From sequence record PQ826431.1: 64,000 bases of DNA; one strand, 5' to 3'. The translations under genes were made by a program, and so were the position numbers. This document shows positions 5,467 through 63,904 of the stretch, piece by piece. Source of the stretch: a phage. Each line of letters opens with the position of its first letter. The first letter of the stretch is position 1. Below the pieces are notes generated by a model, which saw only the letters and a program-made list of their open reading frames with translations, searched no databases and had not been told where the DNA came from.

Positions 5467-6582
5467 GTGGCAAATACATATTTAACTAACGTAGACTTTT
5501 CAGGAAAAGCTACGGAAGAGTCACTAGGTGCTCATATTGCTTACACTTTTGATTTTCAAGGTGGAGCGGCATCTGGTTATAATACCCCCCTTTTATTTAA
5601 GTCAGACGGATCTCCAGACATAACTTTTGAAAAGTTAGAAGCTCTCACTAAAATGGGAGAAGATGTTACAGAGTTACGTAAAAGCTATATTCAACAAGTA
5701 ATGGATCGCATTTCTGAAAAAGTGCGTGAAAAATTTGAAGCTGGTTGGGATTGGGTTTACGTTATTGATGCTGACTTCGATGCGAACGTTGCAATTTTCT
5801 GTTCAGATAACGGTATGTTCTCTGTTGGCTTTAAAGTTGACGGACTGAATGTTGAAGTTGAAGAGGTTGCTAAACCTGTTGTTCGTGTTACTGATTATCA
5901 AGTTGTTGATGGTGATGTAATGATCTCCATTGATTTCTTTGAGGACGTTTTAGACGATGCTTTGAGTAATCTCGTTAAGAGTTCCTTGAAACAAAGTCAA
6001 GTTAAAGATTATTTAGTGAAAGCTCACGCTAAAGCTAATACAAACTCTGTGGATGCAGAGGCTAACCCCGCAGGTGATAAATCTGCAAACACAACTGGAA
6101 TCAATAAAGGAGAAACCCCTTTGGAAAATATCAACAAAGAAGAATTCCTGAAATCTGCTGAATTCCAAGAACTGATGAAAGCACAGATCGCTGAAGCTGT
6201 AGAAAAAGCAGCAGCAGATGCACGTGCAGCCGCAGAACTTGAAGCACAGGAAAAAATCGCTAAGGCAGAACAGGAAGCAGAAGAACTTCGTAAAGCTGAA
6301 CAAGCTCGTATCGAAGAAGAATATACAACTGTTGTTAAATCCTATTCTTTCGTAGAAGAAGACAAAGTTGAAGCTCTCGTTAAATATCTGGTAGACAATA
6401 AAGATATCGCTGAAACTATCGTCAAAGCATTCGAAAAAGCACGTGCAGAAGTGGACGCAGTTAAGAAAGAATTTGGAACAGAACGTGGTGTTGACGTGAT
6501 CAATACTCAACCTGTAGCTAAATCTTCTTCTGAACTGATTAGTCAGAAAGCTGCTGAACTTAAAAAAGCCCAGAAACAATAA
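5467..6582 (+). CDS. putative scaffolding protein
   Basis: GTG start; C-terminal half is highly charged coiled-coil (AELEAQEKIAKAEQEAEELRKAEQARIEEE); position before decoration/capsid genes. Confidence 0.4.
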   Translation: MANTYLTNVDFSGKATEESLGAHIAYTFDFQGGAASGYNTPLLFKSDGSPDITFEKLEALTKMGEDVTELRKSYIQQVMDRISEKVREKFEAGWDWVYVIDADFDANVAIFCSDNGMFSVGFKVDGLNVEVEEVAKPVVRVTDYQVVDGDVMISIDFFEDVLDDALSNLVKSSLKQSQVKDYLVKAHAKANTNSVDAEANPAGDKSANTTGINKGETPLENINKEEFLKSAEFQELMKAQIAEAVEKAAADARAAAELEAQEKIAKAEQEAEELRKAEQARIEEEYTTVVKSYSFVEEDKVEALVKYLVDNKDIAETIVKAFEKARAEVDAVKKEFGTERGVDVINTQPVAKSSSELISQKAAELKKAQKQ

Positions 6583-52793: not shown

Positions 52794-53315
52794 TTAACTC
52801 CCCTTTGGTAGATAGAAACCATGCACTTTATCTCGATAAACAAGACGCATATCACGTTCCCAGTGTGTCCTTATATTCCGTTTCTTGAAGTATAGAGCAC
52901 CTTTAGTAACATCTAAAACAGACCGCAATTCAGGAAAATGTTTCTCTAAATAAAGTAAACGCTCCGCTATTGCTTTTGCTTCCTGCCACTTATCTTTCTC
53001 TGTTACGTTAAAAGTTTTCGCATATGAGAATTGTCCTTTCTGGAACAAGACTCCTCTGACTGTGTTAGGGAAGTAGGTATCATTTCTTCTGTTGATTACC
53101 ACATTCCCAACGGCATTCATTCCTTTTTTACCCAGACCGCGACCTTCTGCGTAAATTGCACAAGCTAATAGAATTTTATCATTATATTGCTTTGTACATT
53201 TGTGAACTACTTTAGCGGTTTTTACGTTTGCAGCTTCGGCTTTCGCCACAACAGGTGTAAATGTAAAAGCAGTTAAGGATAGTAACGCAACTGTTACAAA
53301 GTTTTTTATCAGCAA
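52794..53315 (-). CDS. secreted cell-wall hydrolase, SleB/CwlJ-like (putative endolysin)
   Basis: Signal peptide ending AKA-EAA; motif CAIYAEGRGLGKKGMNAVGNVVINRRN...VLFQKGQFS; TTG start with AAGGAGG RBS. Confidence 0.55.
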   Translation of the reverse strand: MLIKNFVTVALLSLTAFTFTPVVAKAEAANVKTAKVVHKCTKQYNDKILLACAIYAEGRGLGKKGMNAVGNVVINRRNDTYFPNTVRGVLFQKGQFSYAKTFNVTEKDKWQEAKAIAERLLYLEKHFPELRSVLDVTKGALYFKKRNIRTHWERDMRLVYRDKVHGFYLPKGS

Positions 53316-53376: not shown

Positions 53377-53396
53377 GAGGGGGATTTCTCCCCCTC
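53377..53396. other. G-rich palindromic hairpin GAGGGGGA-TTTC-TCCCCCTC
   Basis: Perfect 8 bp stem; near-identical copy at about 33738-33756. Confidence 0.5.
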
Positions 53397-53414: not shown

Positions 53415-54017
53415 TTATGGACATTCATACCATTCTTTTTTACCACCGAAGGCCATCACCACATCACAAATATCCAGACCAGCTTTACCTACACCATATG
53501 CTTTCAGCTTCCATTCCCCATCTTCACGAACCAAGGAAGCCACGTGGCAGATTGTGTTGCCAGCTACTTCAGGAGCCAGGAAGTCAAAATCCAGAATTTC
53601 CACATTGCGCTCGGAGTCGAAGATTTTAAGCATACCTTCAGAAGCATGACCAAAACGTTTCAGACCTGTATCATCATCAATGGTCAGAACAAAGGCAATC
53701 TCTTGTGCATCAGGAGAGATTTTAGCCAGAGTAATATCAATCTGCTCCATGCTGCCAGTTCCATCACGAACATCGTCACCAGCGAAGGTAGAACGTTCAG
53801 GATCAAACTTGTTAGCATAGCAAACCAGATGACGTGCAGACAGCATTTCAGGATTACCAGCGGCATTGTGACGACAAACCAGTGCACTTACATCCAGATC
53901 CAGTTTAGAATCAGATTTCCAAGAGAATTCCAGGCGCAGTTCTTTCAGAGCCGGAGCAACTTTCTTCAGGGAAATTTTTTCGCTAGAGCCTTTTTTCAGG
54001 GAAATTTTATCAGTCAT
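53415..54017 (-). CDS. terD: TerD-family stress protein
   Basis: N-terminal KISLKKG, DLDVSAL, EIAFVLTIDD, GEWKLKAYGVGKAGL match canonical TerD blocks (compared with E. coli TerD from memory). Confidence 0.8.
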   Translation of the reverse strand: MTDKISLKKGSSEKISLKKVAPALKELRLEFSWKSDSKLDLDVSALVCRHNAAGNPEMLSARHLVCYANKFDPERSTFAGDDVRDGTGSMEQIDITLAKISPDAQEIAFVLTIDDDTGLKRFGHASEGMLKIFDSERNVEILDFDFLAPEVAGNTICHVASLVREDGEWKLKAYGVGKAGLDICDVVMAFGGKKEWYECP

Positions 54018-54032: not shown

Positions 54033-54302
54033 TTATTTAAGTGTAATACCAGTTACAGTCAATTCTACTTCCAAAAGCTTAGATGTGTTTTGGATTGATA
54101 CTAATTGTGCATGATGGTTTAGTTCTACAGCAGAATAATCATTTTCCCCATCATCTACTTTTAAATAAACAATGATTTCACTAAGGTCTAAACCATTTTC
54201 GTCAAATGCATTTTCATAGACGAAAGTATCTCCTACATCCAAATCTTTAATGGTAAGGCATCGTTTATTTACTTTTTGCTCATCAATTTCGAAGTTTAAC
54301 AC
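54033..54302 (-). CDS. small protein, paralog B of a phage-specific pair
   Basis: Shares DLDVGDTF ... ELTVTGITLK with the 55324-55602 product. Confidence 0.4.
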   Translation of the reverse strand: MLNFEIDEQKVNKRCLTIKDLDVGDTFVYENAFDENGLDLSEIIVYLKVDDGENDYSAVELNHHAQLVSIQNTSKLLEVELTVTGITLK

Positions 54303-54531
54303 TTCTTCCTCCTAATGTTATCTCCGGTTTGTATATACGAAGAATTATAGCATTTTCATTTTCTTTGTCAACCCATTCTTCATAATCGGGCCATACATGA
54401 ATCTCCACTCTACTTACAATATCTTCCATTCGCACAGTCCCAATGAAATACTCTTTGAGACTGCGCATAATGAAAGCTTCTCTCTCGCGCCAATAATTTT
54501 CTATGACTTGAGAGGCAAGCTCGTCGATCAT
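54283..54531 (-). CDS. hypothetical protein
   Basis: 82 aa ORF. Confidence 0.3.
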   Translation of the reverse strand: MIDELASQVIENYWREREAFIMRSLKEYFIGTVRMEDIVSRVEIHVWPDYEEWVDKENENAIILRIYKPEITLGGRSVKLRN

Positions 54532-55322
54532 TTTTTAGCACCTACTTTAACAACCCACTCTCCGAACTCTTCAGATAAGAGTTTGTCATAAAGCTCTGAA
54601 TCTGTCAAGTCTAAATCTTTAATGCCAATAAAACCAACATTATCATAAGCATTTGCCAGTTCTTTCAGGAACCCAAACTTCTCATTACCAACGCCAACCA
54701 TGAACCAATAAATAGGTTTATTCTTATTCTCTTCAATAAGACGACGAACAGCACTAGGATCACCATTCTCACCATCCGTCTGGAAGAATACAACACCAGG
54801 GGTAACGTCAGCACCTGGTTCAGATACAGCTACAACTTTTTCACGCTCTACAGACACTGTTTCAGTTTTACCAAGCAGACGATTAAAGAAGCCTTTCTTT
54901 GGAGCCTCCTCTTGTACCACTTGTTTAGTGGTAATATATTTGGTAACAGTGCCAAAATACTCATCGTAGATATCTGCCATTACAGGGGCGTAATTTGTTC
55001 CACCTCCGATACGAACATTACGCATACATTTACCAACATAGTCATCGTAAACGTCTGCTGTTGCTGGAGTAAGCTCTTGGGAACTCGTATTGAAGGCCCA
55101 CATATCAATTTGTTGATTATCGTCGAACAGCATACCAAAAGGAAGCAGTTTACCTACAAAATCACTCACTACCCCACTAGAATATAGACCATGCATACTA
55201 CCAGAAATATCTAGAGCACATGCTACACGAAGAACAATCTTACCTTCATTCAGGTTCTTATTCTTTTTCAGAGAGAAAGCAAGGTTTTCTTGACGTTTTT
55301 TCAGGCTGATTTTCTCGGACAT
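54528..55322 (-). CDS. vWA-domain protein, TerF C-terminal-like
   Basis: MIDAS motif ALDISGSMHG; N-terminus KISLKK like TerD. Confidence 0.6.
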   Translation of the reverse strand: MSEKISLKKRQENLAFSLKKNKNLNEGKIVLRVACALDISGSMHGLYSSGVVSDFVGKLLPFGMLFDDNQQIDMWAFNTSSQELTPATADVYDDYVGKCMRNVRIGGGTNYAPVMADIYDEYFGTVTKYITTKQVVQEEAPKKGFFNRLLGKTETVSVEREKVVAVSEPGADVTPGVVFFQTDGENGDPSAVRRLIEENKNKPIYWFMVGVGNEKFGFLKELANAYDNVGFIGIKDLDLTDSELYDKLLSEEFGEWVVKVGAKK

Positions 55323-55323
55323 A

Positions 55324-55602
55324 TTATTTCTCCTTCTTAAGTGTAATATTGGTAACTTCTAAATCTACTTCCACCATATTTGTATCTGGTGGGATGCAAT
55401 GAGTATAGCCTCGTTGTGCTAGTGATCCATTAATACAAATCGCACTGTTTGTGGAATTTTTAATGAACACCAAGTTACGGTAGGTATCCAACCCTGCGTC
55501 TTCATAGGCATCATAATACATGAATGTGGCCCCTACGTCAAGATCTTCGAAAGCAATAGGTAAATCCTGACTTTTTTCTTCTTGAATATTGAATCTAAAC
55601 AC
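55324..55602 (-). CDS. small protein, paralog A of a phage-specific pair
   Basis: ORF track 55324-55668; likely GTG start after GAGGAGG; DLDVGATF ... LEVTNITLKKEK. Confidence 0.4.
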   Translation of the reverse strand: MFRFNIQEEKSQDLPIAFEDLDVGATFMYYDAYEDAGLDTYRNLVFIKNSTNSAICINGSLAQRGYTHCIPPDTNMVEVDLEVTNITLKKEK

Positions 55603-56158
55603 GCATACCTCCTCTACCAATTTTGAAGCCCAAATCGTAAGCTTCCTTAGTGATCTTTTGTAACTCACTTATAGGAAGTGTTACAAGAGGATCATCTTCT
55701 TCAATTTCCATCTTGTCATCTTCTGTTTCAATGAGAGTATTATGCACTTTGTGATAAGGGTTGTCAACACGTTTAAACTTATTCTTTTCTGTGCTGAAAA
55801 AACAATCTGGATCTTCTTCACCATCACCCCAACCTTGGTTAGGATCTCCGTCAGATTGTTCTGTAGGGATTTCACCTGTAAAGTACTCTTCCAGCACCAT
55901 AGCAATACCGTCCCTTGGATTTGAGGAATGCATTAAATCACAAACCTTACCCCAATCCATAGCCCATTCGAACCGTTCACGAACGCCATTTTCATCCTCC
56001 TTTCCAGAGAAAACACAACCATAACTATCATAGTTGCCATACATCTCTTCAATAACAACACCGTCCTTCAAAAGAAAGAGGTAGCAAGGTGATCCGTCGA
56101 AAGAAGTAGAAAGGGCAGCTTTGCCCGATTCTTTGCACAAAAAGCTAAAACAACCCAT
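55595..56158 (-). CDS. hypothetical acidic protein
   Basis: 187 aa ORF. Confidence 0.3.
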   Translation of the reverse strand: MGCFSFLCKESGKAALSTSFDGSPCYLFLLKDGVVIEEMYGNYDSYGCVFSGKEDENGVRERFEWAMDWGKVCDLMHSSNPRDGIAMVLEEYFTGEIPTEQSDGDPNQGWGDGEEDPDCFFSTEKNKFKRVDNPYHKVHNTLIETEDDKMEIEEDDPLVTLPISELQKITKEAYDLGFKIGRGGMRV

Positions 56159-56527: not shown

Positions 56528-56724
56528 TACTCCTCCTCCTCATTGAAGTCAATATCTGCAAGGAGTTCGAATTTACGGAAGTTACGACAACCTTCATAAA
56601 TATAACAATCACGACAAACTGCTAGAACACTTGCGGGATATATACCTCCCATCGGTGCGAATCGTTTTTCGTCATCATAACGGACACCAATGTCTTCATC
56701 AATTATATAGATACGGATTCTCAT
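56527..56724 (-). CDS. small hypothetical protein
   Basis: 65 aa ORF, CRDC...GC. Confidence 0.25.
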   Translation of the reverse strand: MRIRIYIIDEDIGVRYDDEKRFAPMGGIYPASVLAVCRDCYIYEGCRNFRKFELLADIDFNEEEE

Positions 56725-57833
56725 TTACCAAGCCCTCGTTTCACAGCAGCTACCATCCCGTCTTCCAGAGATTGAACTTCATTAATATAATCAACACGAG
56801 CAGCACGGGCTTCCGTATTGATGCGGTTAGTTTCTTCCAACATCTTAACCAAGTTTTCCTGATCGTGACGCAGAGTTTCAATATCCAACACTTGACGGTT
56901 AGCCAGTGCTGCTGCTTCGATCTGATTCTGTGTGGCAAGATCGCTACCCAGTTTAATTGCCAGGTTAAATTCATCAAGAACGTTATTCTGCGTCTCTGCT
57001 GCTTTCATTTGACGTAAGCTCTCGATATACATTGAGAAGTTAGCAGAGTAAGCAGGAATAACATTATTTACTATGTTACGCGCAGATCGCATTAAGCTTG
57101 CAGAAACTTTTTGCATACCTTGTACACGCGGTCCCATTTGGACACACAGTAGGCGCAATGCTTTTAAATCTGCAATACGAATCTCCAGAAGATCCAAAGT
57201 ATCTCGGATCACTTGTCGCTGTTCTACTGCATCTTCTGGAAGAGCAGCCAAAGCTTGTTCTTCTTTTTCATAGGTTGCTGTTAGAAGCTGCATATCTCGG
57301 TTCAAACTTGCAGCATATTGTCCAATAGCTTGATGCAGCTTTTCAAGATATACCAAGGAATCTTCTTCTTTGCGAATATCCATTTGAAGGTTCTTTACCA
57401 ACTCTTCAATACGGTTATTAACATTATCAAACTCCCCGAACAGGTCTTCTTTCATACCCATAACTTTTTTAATGAGTTTAGTAATACCCTTGCTTTGTTT
57501 AATAGAGTTTGGATCAAGTTGTTTTGCCTGTTTAATCAAAGCTGTGAGTCGTTCACTCATCTGATCGCCTTGATTACTACGTTGATGTTTTAACACCTCG
57601 GCATTCAAGGAACGCAAGGTTGTTCCTGCCTCTGCCCCAATCTCTTCAATCTCTTGTCGGGTCATAGAAGGCAAAACTGGAACTTCTTGCGGTGCCGCTG
57701 GTGCATAAACAGGACTGGCATCTAACACGCTTGGAGCGAATACAGATTTACTTGCATCTGTTGTTGCAGCGAATACACTCATTTCAGACTTCTTCTGACC
57801 ACCAGTAGCTGCTTTTAAAAATGGACTTGTCAT
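56721..57833 (-). CDS. telA: TelA-like toxic-anion-resistance family protein
   Basis: 370 aa, all-helical, acidic; call rests mainly on size, composition and the TerD/TerC/vWA neighbourhood. Confidence 0.4.
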   Translation of the reverse strand: MTSPFLKAATGGQKKSEMSVFAATTDASKSVFAPSVLDASPVYAPAAPQEVPVLPSMTRQEIEEIGAEAGTTLRSLNAEVLKHQRSNQGDQMSERLTALIKQAKQLDPNSIKQSKGITKLIKKVMGMKEDLFGEFDNVNNRIEELVKNLQMDIRKEEDSLVYLEKLHQAIGQYAASLNRDMQLLTATYEKEEQALAALPEDAVEQRQVIRDTLDLLEIRIADLKALRLLCVQMGPRVQGMQKVSASLMRSARNIVNNVIPAYSANFSMYIESLRQMKAAETQNNVLDEFNLAIKLGSDLATQNQIEAAALANRQVLDIETLRHDQENLVKMLEETNRINTEARAARVDYINEVQSLEDGMVAAVKRGLGK

Positions 57834-58420
57834 TCTTCATTCTCCTCTTCTGCATCTCTTATATATGGTGAAACACCGTACTCTTTAGCTACTTTAACCC
57901 AATCATCCCATTTATACAACCATAATTTTCCTTCAGTTCCTTCTTTATCTGATTTCAACCACATGTTAGGTTGCTTGCCTGGGTACATGCGATTAGGTTT
58001 ACGATTATAACCTCTAACACATCTTGTCGCAAACCTATCTACCAGAACAAGAACATATTTATATTCGTGGTTCAACGGCTCTTTGGAAGTGGCTTTAGGA
58101 TTAGCCCCTAACTCTGCTGCCAGTTTTTGCCAATGAGCACCGTGTCTACTAAACTTACCCATACAACCATCAATAGCATGAGCAATTTCGTGCTTCATTG
58201 TATCCACGATCATATCTCTTGTGGAGTTCTTATGCAAGTGCCAATTTACAACAACAATTTTATCTCGGTAGTTGCACCAACCGAAAGAGTTATTCACTTT
58301 GTTTCTAACACAAGCTTTATATCCTGCTTCACGTAACATGTTGTAGTAAACAGGAAAATCTTCTTTTATTTCCTGCATCACTTCCCACCACAAGAGTTGC
58401 AAGTCTCTCTCGGTATGCAT
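57830..58420 (-). CDS. SprT-like zinc metalloprotease domain protein
   Basis: HEIAH zinc-binding motif followed by HGAHW. Confidence 0.5.
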   Translation of the reverse strand: MHTERDLQLLWWEVMQEIKEDFPVYYNMLREAGYKACVRNKVNNSFGWCNYRDKIVVVNWHLHKNSTRDMIVDTMKHEIAHAIDGCMGKFSRHGAHWQKLAAELGANPKATSKEPLNHEYKYVLVLVDRFATRCVRGYNRKPNRMYPGKQPNMWLKSDKEGTEGKLWLYKWDDWVKVAKEYGVSPYIRDAEEENEE

Positions 58421-60045: not shown

Positions 60046-61020
60046 TTAAACAGCAGCTTCTTCTTTTTCAGGGAAGATAAAGCTTGCAATAACACCAAGA
60101 GCTAATGTGCTTAGAACAATCATCAGACTTACGTTAGGGGAAATATCATGCGGGAGGAATGACCATTTGGCATGAAGTGTTTCACCGAACGGGTGATACA
60201 TAAGTTTAGCACCGACAAACACCAGAACCACAGCAACAGCTTTCTCTAAGTGAACCAGATATTTCACAGCTACACTTAACACAAAGAAAAGTGCACGTAA
60301 ACCAAGAACAGCCATCAGCATTGCAGAATAAACTAGCAGAGGTTCTTGTGTCACACCGATCACAGCCGGAACTGAATCAAAAGAGAAGACAATATCTGTA
60401 AGCTCAATAACAAACACACAAAGAAGAGCAGGAGTTGCATATTTAATACCATTCTTAATGGTGATGAACTTTTCACCATCCAGTGCATTGTGCACAGGCA
60501 GAACTTTACCTACTAAACGAACAGCCCAATGCTTAGAGTAATCAATATCCTCTTCTTCGTCACCACCTTTGATGATAGCCACGGCAGACCAAGCTACAAT
60601 CAAACCGAACAACACTTGGACCGACCAATGAAGGTTAAACAAAGCGGTCCCTGCTGCAACAAAAATACCTCGGAAGACAATGGCTCCTGCAATCCCCCAA
60701 AGTAAAATCTTATGTTGGAGATGTGTGCTCTTAATTCCAAAGCTTGCAAAAATTGCCATGAACACCATCAGGTTATCTACAGAAAGACTCTTTTCCAACA
60801 CATAGCCACTTAGGAAAAGCGCGGCAAACTCTTTACCATGTTCTACCCAAATGAATGCGTAATATCCTAAAGCTAAAGCAATCCAAAAAACAGACCAAAG
60901 CAAAGCAGATTTAATTCCAATTTCTTTATTCTCTTTATGACCAAAGAAATCGATACCAATAGACAATGCCAAAATACCAACTAAAACAACTACATCAATA
61001 ATTGGGAAACCAAGTTGCAT
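60046..61020 (-). CDS. terC: TerC-family integral membrane protein
   Basis: Multi-pass membrane protein with signature YVLEKSLSVDNLMVFMAIF. Confidence 0.7.
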   Translation of the reverse strand: MQLGFPIIDVVVLVGILALSIGIDFFGHKENKEIGIKSALLWSVFWIALALGYYAFIWVEHGKEFAALFLSGYVLEKSLSVDNLMVFMAIFASFGIKSTHLQHKILLWGIAGAIVFRGIFVAAGTALFNLHWSVQVLFGLIVAWSAVAIIKGGDEEEDIDYSKHWAVRLVGKVLPVHNALDGEKFITIKNGIKYATPALLCVFVIELTDIVFSFDSVPAVIGVTQEPLLVYSAMLMAVLGLRALFFVLSVAVKYLVHLEKAVAVVLVFVGAKLMYHPFGETLHAKWSFLPHDISPNVSLMIVLSTLALGVIASFIFPEKEEAAV

Positions 61021-61333: not shown

Positions 61334-61807
61334 TTAAAGTTTATAAATAGTCACATCGTGACCTGTTTTTACTAAAGTTTCTTCAATCATCACTTGGATG
61401 ATAGCCCAATTACCTCCAGCATATCCAGCGCCAATCATAGGTAAGCCGATCTTACATTTTTTGTCACGGAGAAGCAAATCGTTAGCCATAGCTATTAGTG
61501 CATCGTAAAGTGCATCATAGTCCAACTGACGACCTTTAGCATTGTATCCGTAACGGTATTGCCCGTATAGATTATATACCAAAGGGTCTGATTGTTCGTC
61601 TGGCACCCCTAAACTAAAACAACCTAGTTTACTTTGATCACCAGCCATTGTGTCTAAGTCTGCTGCATATGCGTAAGGAAATGCTTGTTTGATTTGTGGG
61701 GCAATACCTGCCCCCATATTACACATACAGTTGCAACAATGAGCAATAACAGTTACTTCACCTGCTTTAGCGGCATCAATAAGATTACCTCTTTTCATTT
61801 TAAGCAT
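61334..61807 (-). CDS. macro-domain protein
   Basis: VIAHCCNCMCNMGAGIAPQIKQAF fits macro pattern; ORF track extends to 61912 but AAGGAG-supported ATG at 61807 avoids overlap with upstream gene. Confidence 0.45.
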   Translation of the reverse strand: MLKMKRGNLIDAAKAGEVTVIAHCCNCMCNMGAGIAPQIKQAFPYAYAADLDTMAGDQSKLGCFSLGVPDEQSDPLVYNLYGQYRYGYNAKGRQLDYDALYDALIAMANDLLLRDKKCKIGLPMIGAGYAGGNWAIIQVMIEETLVKTGHDVTIYKL

Positions 61808-61820
61808 TTTTAGCTCCTTA

Positions 61821-62648
61821 TTACAGAATGTGTTGTTTTGTGTAACGATCCAAGAATTCAAAGTTTTCAGCATACTTTGAAATTCGGTTGTAACCTTCTC
61901 CCAAACATCCAAAGAAAAGTTGCTCTACATAGTAATGTGGCAATTGGCTAAGAATGATTTTGAAGTCTTCATGATTTTGGCCCATAAGATACTTAATAGG
62001 ACGAACAAGACACTGTGCATCACGTTCTTCATTAATCATTTTAACAAACGCTTCTGGTGTATTAATGTAGTTAAAATTCAGTTTAGCTTCGGTATCTGCT
62101 TGATTACCTTCGTATTTTGCAAAATACAAGAAGTAAACATCATTTTTAACTTGATTTTCATCAAGGATCTCAATCAGTTTGTCTTCATGCGTTCCAGTGA
62201 TATTTACATCATCAATGAATACAAGCTTCTTATCACCCCAGAATTCTTTGTTGCAGTAGAATGTATCCCCATCAATAAGTTTCTTACGACTAGCTTTATC
62301 CAAGAAACCATAATCGTTGATATAGCTAACTTTACGATGAATAATGTCCAGTTCTGCTGAACGACCTTGATCATATTGTGATTGCAACATATTAAAATAA
62401 TTAATAAAATGATTTGTCATCATTGTTGCAGCATTATGCACATGGTTATAAGGAGAAGGAATGATAACAAATTGTTCCCCAATATGTTTCATTGCCACTT
62501 GAGCAAAAAACTGAAGTGCCAATTCTTTACCCATACGACGCGCAGCTTGGTTACTACCAAATTTTAATTTTGAATAATCTTGGATATCAAAAGTAGCAGT
62601 TTCCAGGTCATCAAATTTATTTGCAAAAATTTGAGTTTGATTACGCAT
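61821..62648 (-). CDS. phosphoribosyltransferase-domain protein
   Basis: PRPP-binding motif KLVFIDDVNITGTHEDK. Confidence 0.55.
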   Translation of the reverse strand: MRNQTQIFANKFDDLETATFDIQDYSKLKFGSNQAARRMGKELALQFFAQVAMKHIGEQFVIIPSPYNHVHNAATMMTNHFINYFNMLQSQYDQGRSAELDIIHRKVSYINDYGFLDKASRKKLIDGDTFYCNKEFWGDKKLVFIDDVNITGTHEDKLIEILDENQVKNDVYFLYFAKYEGNQADTEAKLNFNYINTPEAFVKMINEERDAQCLVRPIKYLMGQNHEDFKIILSQLPHYYVEQLFFGCLGEGYNRISKYAENFEFLDRYTKQHIL

Positions 62649-63297
62649 TTACAATTTCTCCTCTTTTAAGTTTCTCTAGTAAGTCGTTAGGGTTCTTAAT
62701 ATGACAGAAGTTAAATCCTAAGTCAACACATTTTCCATCATATTCTTCACTATCGCCTACGTGCAACACTTCGTGCCCTAACAGAGGGATCGGAGAATAC
62801 GTGAGCGTGCGAGCAAAGAATCGCGGATCTGGTTTACAAAGTAAAGCTTCATCCGAGAAATGGGTGAACTCAAAACAATTCCAACTATCAAACTTACAAG
62901 CACGACGCAGGATATCCCCTGATATGAAGTTGGTATTGCTCTTAATACTCAAATCATAACGCCCTGAAAGATACAGCAAGTATATCGGCAGATCCACGGC
63001 TACGTGTGGTGGAAACTTAAGGAACCACTGTTCACACTCGAAACGAAGCTTTGCAGACTTCCAAGGCGTTATCCCAAGTTCAGAACCAAGTCTTTCCCAG
63101 GCGTATGCTGCACACTCGGCTTTGCCTTGAAGTGCTGCATTATCCAGTTCCTTTTTGATCTTTTTATAAGCTGCTCTTGCTTCCACTTCCGTAATATCTC
63201 CATATTTTGCGATAGTCCAGGCTCGCATGTCTGCGTAATTGGAGTTTGCTGTGATCAGTGTGTTCCATACATCAAAAGAGATATGTTTAATAGTCAT
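62641..63297 (-). CDS. HAD-superfamily hydrolase
   Basis: Motif I ISFDVWNTLI, later K-containing CKPDPRFF and acidic HVGDSEEYD. Confidence 0.55.
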   Translation of the reverse strand: MTIKHISFDVWNTLITANSNYADMRAWTIAKYGDITEVEARAAYKKIKKELDNAALQGKAECAAYAWERLGSELGITPWKSAKLRFECEQWFLKFPPHVAVDLPIYLLYLSGRYDLSIKSNTNFISGDILRRACKFDSWNCFEFTHFSDEALLCKPDPRFFARTLTYSPIPLLGHEVLHVGDSEEYDGKCVDLGFNFCHIKNPNDLLEKLKRGEIVNA

Positions 63298-63298
63298 A

Positions 63299-63904
63299 TT
63301 AAGCCCACCATGCGTCTAAGTTAAGATTACTGTCCACTACCACTTGTTCTATGTGGTAGCCTTTTATCTGTATCCCACTGTTCAAGAGCATATCATACGC
63401 TTCATTGAAACGCAACTTATCTTCTGCGGAATATAAGCGAGCATTATAAAATCGGTAATCAATTTCTTCAGCATTAGAAGAAATACGGAAGAAGTTTGTT
63501 TCTACTTCGGGATCACTTGCTGAAGTCTTAATGTGAACTTCTCCGTAATTTTCTTTACTTAGATCCATGAAAAGAACACAGGCAACATGTTTAAACATTC
63601 GTTCCAGTTTGTAACGAACAACATTGAAACCTGCATTCTCAAGTTTTTCTACACACTGCAACATTAAAGTAGTGTCGAGATCGCTTTGATACTTTGTTAA
63701 CATACGATCACGTTGAGACTTTGTATCCCGATGTAAATCAATTGTTGTGCATTTGGCACCAATAATCTTAGCTGCTTTCATCAACTCTTCAGAACTAACG
63801 TTAGATAAAGTAAGATGAAAATGAGCTTTCCACACTTTTTTAGCAGGGACACCAAAAGATTTATCCCCACTATTCGGCATGTTGACTACTACACTATGTT
63901 GCAT
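63299..63904 (-). CDS. hypothetical protein
   Basis: 201 aa ORF with GAGGAG RBS; contains HLTL, no confident family assignment. Confidence 0.3.
   Translation of the reverse strand: MQHSVVVNMPNSGDKSFGVPAKKVWKAHFHLTLSNVSSEELMKAAKIIGAKCTTIDLHRDTKSQRDRMLTKYQSDLDTTLMLQCVEKLENAGFNVVRYKLERMFKHVACVLFMDLSKENYGEVHIKTSASDPEVETNFFRISSNAEEIDYRFYNARLYSAEDKLRFNEAYDMLLNSGIQIKGYHIEQVVVDSNLNLDAWWA

Follow-up and report, generated by a model that had tools for sequence, protein, structure and literature searches.

Ter systems are widespread in bacteria, plasmids and large phages, and their mechanism is largely obscure. In 2012, Anantharaman, Iyer and Aravind are said to have described Ter as a stress-response/exclusion system present in bacteria, on plasmids and in some large phages; Iyer et al. 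gave a summary in 2021 (PMC7824862). One of the Ter proteins, TerF, consists of a TerD domain fused to a C-terminal vWA domain. Excerpts of PMC7824862 describe a Ter system with a nucleoside-derived signal and ligand-binding TerB/TerD proteins, and comparable phage Ter clusters are reported in the excerpted parts of that paper and, for Klebsiella phage phiKp34, of PMC8386662. According to the same excerpts, the Ter modules of large phages were proposed to serve superinfection exclusion or stress tolerance (PMC7824862, PMC8386662). Here we analysed a Ter module in a 64-kb stretch of phage DNA (64,000 nucleotides, record PQ826431.1; the whole stretch is referred to as the window) and two small proteins encoded within it, A and B, each directly upstream of a gene for a Ter protein. 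In our judgement, there is about an even chance that the A/B family is an accessory of the phage Ter module whose proteins serve its vWA/TerD part as adaptors or regulators.

The window is the genome of a Phapecoctavirus (phAPEC8-like; subfamily Stephanstirmvirinae), and its DNA is 99% identical to that of phAPEC8-like coliphages. In annotations of related phAPEC8-like records, A, B, the vWA protein and usually TerD are listed as "hypothetical proteins". By Pfam, the gene set that defines a Ter gene neighbourhood is present: TerC, TelA, TerD, a vWA-TerF-like protein and PRTase_3, together with a weak HAD match, are all encoded on the minus strand between 53415 and 63297 (Table 1). With the SprT-like protease, they make up a full Ter module. 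The TerD gene (53415-54017) scored 98.9 bits against PF02342, for which the cut-off is 25.3, and residues 5-179 were covered. The vWA gene (54528-55322) scored 130.1 bits against PF10138 (gathering cut-off 29.4), and its product carries the metal-site motif DISGS, of the form DxSxS, at residues 37-41. None of the PADLOC models matched A, B, vWA, TerD, TelA or TerC.

The best reading of A takes as its start the GTG at 55602, which follows GAGGAGG, and gives a protein of 92 amino acids (MFRFNIQEEK...); the same start is annotated in related phages. B also starts with GTG, behind AGGAGG. The two proteins are 33% identical over 89 residues without gaps (BLASTP, E 3e-13). PHROG 11278 covers each of them over its full length (A, residues 1-92, 4.2e-51; B, residues 1-89, 7e-45). 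A and B are true paralogues, with a similarity well beyond chance, as the initial annotation had claimed for two proteins of about 90 amino acids sharing DLDVG-TF...VTxITLK; the motifs DLDVG-TF and VT-ITLK are truly common to both. The placement given there, with each small gene directly upstream of a gene whose product begins with KISLKK, was likewise confirmed. The stop codon of A is separated by 1 nucleotide from the ATG of the vWA gene, and that of B by 15 nucleotides from the ATG of the TerD gene; the two downstream products start MSEKISLKK... and MTDKISLKK.... B and TerD are in the same frame, with TAA TAG and four codons between them. Both small proteins are acidic (net charge -7 for A and -11 for B), as are all members of the family (-2 to -11).

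We looked up the genomic place of the gene for 12 distant clusters of the family, whose identity to A or B is 22-37%, checking short contigs by BLAST. In 12 of 12, wherever flanking DNA was present, the gene was immediately preceded by a vWA-TerF-like gene and immediately followed by TerD. The association with TerD-family genes, whose absence elsewhere would have spoken against a connection, therefore extends to every distant member looked up, and the linkage to the vWA/TerD pair is strong. The number and order of the copies varied with the lineage. The arrangement vWA-small-TerD-SleB was found in loci L007, L008, L014, L021, L022 and L024, and also in L006, L013 and L005, whose contigs are too short for the whole block. 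In L010 and L012, two tandem paralogues, s1 and s2, stand between vWA and TerD and none stands before vWA (vWA-s1-s2-TerD). The window shares the arrangement A-vWA-orf82-B-TerD with L003, L004, L015 and L016, while Justusliebigvirus alia and Klebsiella phage 05F01 have A-vWA-TerD, with B absent. Among the loci examined, orf82 was seen only in phages that carry B; it is 59-60% identical in L015 and L003, and Justusliebigvirus has neither copy B nor orf82. We conclude that the family is a lineage-specific accessory that always adjoins vWA/TerD in the genomes carrying it.

Other features of these loci were observed in passing. In L001 (Escherichia phage alia), an extra gene at 5788-6390 between TerD and SleB encodes a very acidic protein of 200 amino acids (net -16, no Pfam match), which has a TerD-like size, yet no TerD match. 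In L025, from a close relative (Escherichia phage WPEC2, 2781-4462), the coding sequence of the vWA-TerF-like protein is annotated as 186 amino acids only and is followed by a string of tiny open reading frames (ORFs); tblastn covered 68% of the vWA protein and found a second place. A viable phage thus seems to have an interrupted vWA gene. Like the small barrel protein, the ORFs immediately preceding vWA are hypervariable: in comparisons of L014 with L022 and of L008 with L024, proteins of 104 and 110 amino acids were 19% identical and proteins of 193 and 201 amino acids were 29% identical, in phage pairs whose identity is otherwise 76-97% over most of the block. The 5' flank of vWA looks like a site of variation.

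The family is tiny and restricted to phages. A word-indexed search of 5.8 billion proteins found 22 clusters. HMMER, run exhaustively over 1.84 billion representatives, found 20 matches at E<=1e-3, of which one, a fibronectin-repeat protein, was spurious, leaving about 19 genuine clusters; the genuine matches were 54-93 amino acids long and the full-length members 87-93. All 23 of the 23 aligned members matched PHROG 11278. Among GenBank phages, 127 records carry the family, 65 of them with two copies (Phapecoctavirus type) and the remainder, such as Justusliebigvirus, with one detectable copy. In the bacterial genome collection, the sole matches were two phage fragments, 98-99% identical to the B gene, in metagenome-assembled genomes (MAGs; L026, Proteobacteria bacterium OH_PFB_59; L027, Lysobacteraceae bacterium JHOS43). 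A partial TerD identical to phage TerD is labelled as a Xanthomonadaceae protein at NCBI. These MAG and Xanthomonadaceae matches are most likely mis-binned phage DNA. PHROG 11278 itself is without annotation of function or context; what is new here is its link to vWA/TerD, its fold and the arrangement of promoters.

A promoter-like site precedes each of the two copies in the window. Of all sites on the two strands of the window, the one ahead of B and TerD (54344-54371, Table 1) alone matches the sigma-70 consensus 12/12. It stays 12/12 in L003, L004, L015 and L016, though the ORF that encloses it has diverged to 59-60% amino-acid identity. The site upstream of A was kept in L001 and L003, and L004 has a one-base variant, GATAAT. 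Comparable sites occur with other arrangements: alia, which lacks B, has TTGACT-17-TAAAAT in the spacer between vWA and TerD, and an 11/12 promoter-like site stands ahead of s1-s2-TerD in L010 and L012. The GC-rich stem-loop downstream of TerD, read from the sequence, has a weak T tract and was not called by the terminator scan; the B-TerD transcript may end there. In this phage, [A-vWA] and [B-TerD] are plausibly two separate transcription units. Since a conserved promoter-like site precedes each copy, this phage can fairly be said to have two two-gene modules. The duplicated two-gene module of the initial annotation stands in this respect, but it overlooked orf82, so that the modules are A-vWA and orf82-B-TerD.

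The codon use of TerD is strikingly host-optimal, unlike that of all its neighbours (TerD GC 0.44; in SleB, 2 of 17 Leu codons are CTG), which suggests very high expression of TerD alone. The consensus promoter before B-TerD and this codon optimisation suggest that TerD may be made early and abundantly by host RNA polymerase, which would fit host takeover or superinfection exclusion.

The N-termini of the vWA protein and TerD resemble each other and co-vary across phages. Every vWA protein and every Pfam-confirmed TerD examined had an N-terminal double strand motif, (K)[ILV]SLKK-x5-7-[ILV]SLKK. In the vWA protein of the window this is the Lys-rich double motif KISLKK...FSLKK, followed by DISGS. 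The first 22 residues of each of these proteins have a net charge of +4 to +7, in otherwise acidic proteins. Over the first 20 residues or so, vWA resembles the TerD of its own genome: on average 5.9 of 9 positions agreed within genomes, compared with 4.3 of 9 between genomes, a difference not attained in any of 10,000 permutations. In the window, recent gene conversion is unlikely as the cause, because the Ser codons differ between the vWA and TerD genes (AGC versus TCC). The resemblance is also found in phages without the small-protein family: CcrColossus (vWA SDVINLAK, TerD TDTINLTK), Kabachok (AVIDLEK, SVIDLSK) and Acinetobacter 313 (MLQFDLVK, MLQFDLCK). The shared N-terminus is a general trait of the vWA/TerD pair, independent of the small protein. 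The basic segment could be a shared docking or membrane-binding hairpin.

Structure prediction of each small protein alone, which the initial annotation had proposed as a check, gave a consistent fold. AlphaFold2 with the family alignment reached a pLDDT (the predicted local confidence) of 83 for A and for B, with identical strand order and one short helix. A and B are predicted to be SH3-like small beta-barrels, that is, five-stranded, strongly bent antiparallel barrels, about 60-70 residues in size, that structurally resemble known SH3-like domains. The nearest known folds are the ribosomal L2 C-terminal domain, FeoA, the C-terminal SH3 domain of DtxR/IdeR, Tudor, and KOW/EF-P domain I. This assignment is at fold level only and carries no function over. 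FeoA/DtxR-type SH3 domains are metal-linked; A and B have no Pfam membership in FeoA. No relative of the small proteins was found in Pfam, PDB sequences or PADLOC. Across the family alignment only M1, F4 and G24 are invariant, and L21, F27, K48, N58 and V83 are nearly so. We also considered whether the small proteins are fragments of TerD and rejected this, as they have no Pfam match to it and hhalign of the family against the TerD alignment gave a probability of 0.2%.

As an adaptor or regulator, the small protein would act on the vWA/TerD pair in sub-stoichiometric amounts, or else as an assembly factor, and a plausible contact is between its acidic barrel and the Lys-rich N-terminal beta-hairpin common to vWA and TerD. 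Among the distant relatives, one copy between vWA and TerD is the usual state. Stephanstirmvirinae-type phages would have duplicated the gene and moved one copy ahead of vWA, and some would then have lost the copy ahead of TerD. In the tree, the A and B clades group together, apart from most single-copy lineages, with bootstrap values below 50 at the deep nodes, including the placement of A+B. The tree suggests that the gene was duplicated at the base of the Stephanstirmvirinae-type phages and that some of them later lost B.

Several observations weigh against this proposal. The small proteins are the fastest-diverging of the conserved module genes: over four locus pairs, their identity was 43-54%, compared with 86-94% for TerD and 73-83% for vWA. 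Mere contact with conserved partners would predict tighter constraint. The genes are nevertheless under purifying selection, as indicated by a ratio of nonsynonymous to synonymous substitution rates (dN/dS) of 0.11-0.13 for A and B in the pair L003/L004; with dS saturated for most pairs, these values alone are reliable. Codon use also differs within the module, TerD being codon-optimised and B not (Leu is encoded by CTG at 17 of 19 positions in TerD, 0 of 12 in B and 0 of 7 in A). Both the fast divergence and this codon contrast speak against a structural partner in equimolar amounts and tight co-evolution; they are in keeping with an adaptor or regulator of low abundance, or with a protein whose other contact varies.

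The distribution of the family raises further difficulties for the same proposal. All carriers share a wider synteny (TelA...vWA...TerD-SleB...glycosyltransferases...primase-helicase), so the co-location may partly reflect vertical inheritance in one broad phage lineage rather than an association that arose repeatedly and independently. In a six-frame search with the family hidden Markov model (HMM), no member was found in Caulobacter and Brevundimonas jumbo phages, an Acinetobacter phage or a Lysinibacillus phage that encode a vWA-TerF-like protein, the first three with a nearby TerD. Other small ORFs beside the Ter genes (CcrColossus gp223, Kabachok 02720, a 57-amino-acid Acinetobacter ORF and a 91-amino-acid Lysinibacillus ORF) did not match the family HMM either. 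No family member was found on any bacterial chromosome, by HMMER of the representatives or in the bacterial genome collection. The absence from these phage Ter modules and from bacterial chromosomes implies that the family is dispensable for vWA/TerD function in general.

The alternative that best survives is that A and B are fast-evolving accessory genes whose role, such as one in host takeover or anti-defence, has nothing to do with Ter, and which merely travel with the block. This would explain why the family is confined to phages with extended synteny around the module, why it diverges much faster than the neighbouring genes and why no other Ter system examined has it; moreover, function-unassigned small phage proteins very commonly adopt the generic SH3-like small-barrel fold. 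We nevertheless regard it as rather unlikely in view of how the gene is placed. The other small ORFs of the block, between TelA and vWA, are swapped from lineage to lineage, but the family gene holds its exact slot beside vWA and TerD down to 22-30% identity. Its duplicates never lie outside the module, whether as tandem s1-s2 (L010/L012) or as A and B (the window). Its start and stop codons are tightly packed with those of vWA and TerD; in L008, the small gene overlaps vWA by 8 nucleotides and is followed by a gap of 10 nucleotides to TerD. The gene also sits between a conserved promoter-like site and TerD.

The initial annotation had read the small proteins as dedicated partners of the TerD-fold proteins. 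In a one-to-one form of this reading, A would be a specific partner or chaperone of vWA and B the specific partner of TerD, each recognising the KISLKK N-terminus of the downstream product. In the window, each copy does stand directly before the gene of its putative partner, behind a conserved promoter-like site of its own. A and B form two distinct clades, both maintained throughout Phapecoctavirus-type phages, in keeping with subfunctionalisation of the duplicates, and acidic barrels would suit basic N-terminal hairpins. Other lineages do not follow this pairing. In most of them, a single gene serves both vWA and TerD; Justusliebigvirus and 05F01 retain TerD without B; and in L010 and L012 both copies stand before TerD and none before vWA. 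The KISLKK-type N-terminus is found in the vWA/TerD pairs of phages that lack the family, and the rates of divergence and codon use described above set the small proteins apart from the proteins they would be partnered with. This claim was therefore not upheld, and we consider strict one-to-one partnership improbable.

It is a long shot that the acidic barrel is a fast-evolving specificity or trigger subunit. It would dock on the Lys-rich hairpin that co-varies between vWA and TerD of each genome and gate the assembly of a sub-membrane complex of TelA, vWA and TerD for superinfection exclusion, with its divergence reflecting an arms race with competing phages or host factors. If so, the duplication in Phapecoctavirus would separate the control of vWA from that of TerD. 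Least probable of all is the speculative idea that the barrel is a ligand sensor or sponge, which binds a putative nucleoside-like metabolite of PRTase/HAD or a metal ion and relays the signal to vWA/TerD: PRTase_3 and an HAD-type hydrolase are indeed encoded beside the module, and a nucleoside-derived signal with ligand-binding TerB/TerD appears in the excerpts of PMC7824862, but the fold matches are generic SH3-like with no leaning to ligand-binding families, and no conserved His/Cys/Asp cluster or pocket motif is evident in the family alignment.

A small protein that in one phage lineage invariably accompanies vWA/TerD is an experimental handle: it is easily deleted, tagged and pulled down, and its partner would reveal the regulated Ter protein or the sensed signal.

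The surroundings of the module are summarized in Table 1. Every gene across 49.9-64 kb of the window is on the minus strand. The sign of the GC skew flips near 38 kb, from positive before to negative after, which may mark a switch of the coding strand. Upstream of TerC (window 61334-63904, minus strand), the genes for the Macro-like, PRTase_3 and HAD proteins are accompanied by an ORF of 201 amino acids without a Pfam match. This group is the counterpart of the arm of Ter systems that synthesises nucleoside metabolites; the rest of that arm may lie beyond the end of the window.

Table 1. Features of the Ter block of the window (52.7-64 kb), listed in the order of transcription of the minus strand; other ORFs are interspersed. 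aa, amino acids; nt, nucleotides.
Feature	Position in window	Strand	Details
HAD-type hydrolase	62641-63297	-	weak Pfam match
ComF-like phosphoribosyltransferase (PRTase_3)	61821-62648	-	Ter-associated metabolite-synthesis component; Pfam PF15610, 1.8e-41
Macro-like ORF	between PRTase and TerC	-	weak match, 2e-4
TerC-family membrane protein	60046-61020	-	Pfam PF03741, 3e-40
Several function-unassigned ORFs	between TerC and SprT	-	
SprT-like protease	57830-58420	-	
TelA-like protein	56721-57833	-	Pfam PF05816, 3.2e-33; PHROG 5890, 'tellurite resistance'
Three tiny ORFs and a 187-aa ORF	between TelA and A	-	
Sigma-70-like site, TTGACA-17-CATAAT	55739-55767	-	11/12; inside the 187-aa ORF (3' part), about 137 nt upstream of A
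Small protein A	55324-55602	-	92 aa; PHROG 11278
vWA-TerF-like protein	54528-55322	-	264 aa; Pfam PF10138, 1.6e-37
orf82	54283-54531	-	82 aa; PHROG 22387; 3' part holds the B-TerD promoter-like site
Perfect sigma-70 consensus, TTGACA-16-TATAAT	54344-54371	-	TG upstream of -10; within orf82; -10 ends 41 nt upstream of the GTG of B
Small protein B	54033-54302	-	89 aa; PHROG 11278
TerD-domain protein	53415-54017	-	200 aa; Pfam PF02342, 3.2e-28; N-terminus MTDKISLKKGSSEKISLKK
GC-rich stem-loop, GAGGGGG-AGAAAT-CCCCCTC	53377-53396	-	19 nt past the TerD stop
SleB-type cell-wall hydrolase	52794-53315	-	

The module agrees with the Ter system in having TerC, TelA, the vWA-TerF-like protein, TerD, PRTase_3 and an HAD-type hydrolase in one minus-strand block. 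The 264-amino-acid protein is like TerF in its match to PF10138 ('vWA found in TerF C terminus') and in its N-terminal double (K)ISLKK strand motif, which resembles the first hairpin of TerD. Unlike TerF, it is without the body of a TerD domain: only about 25 N-terminal residues are TerD-like, and TerD is a separate gene. The module also differs from the described Ter clusters in its small SH3-like component, which the excerpts of PMC7824862 and PMC8386662 do not mention. A and B are thus an undescribed accessory in a lineage-specific variant of the known Ter system, rather than a new kind of system.

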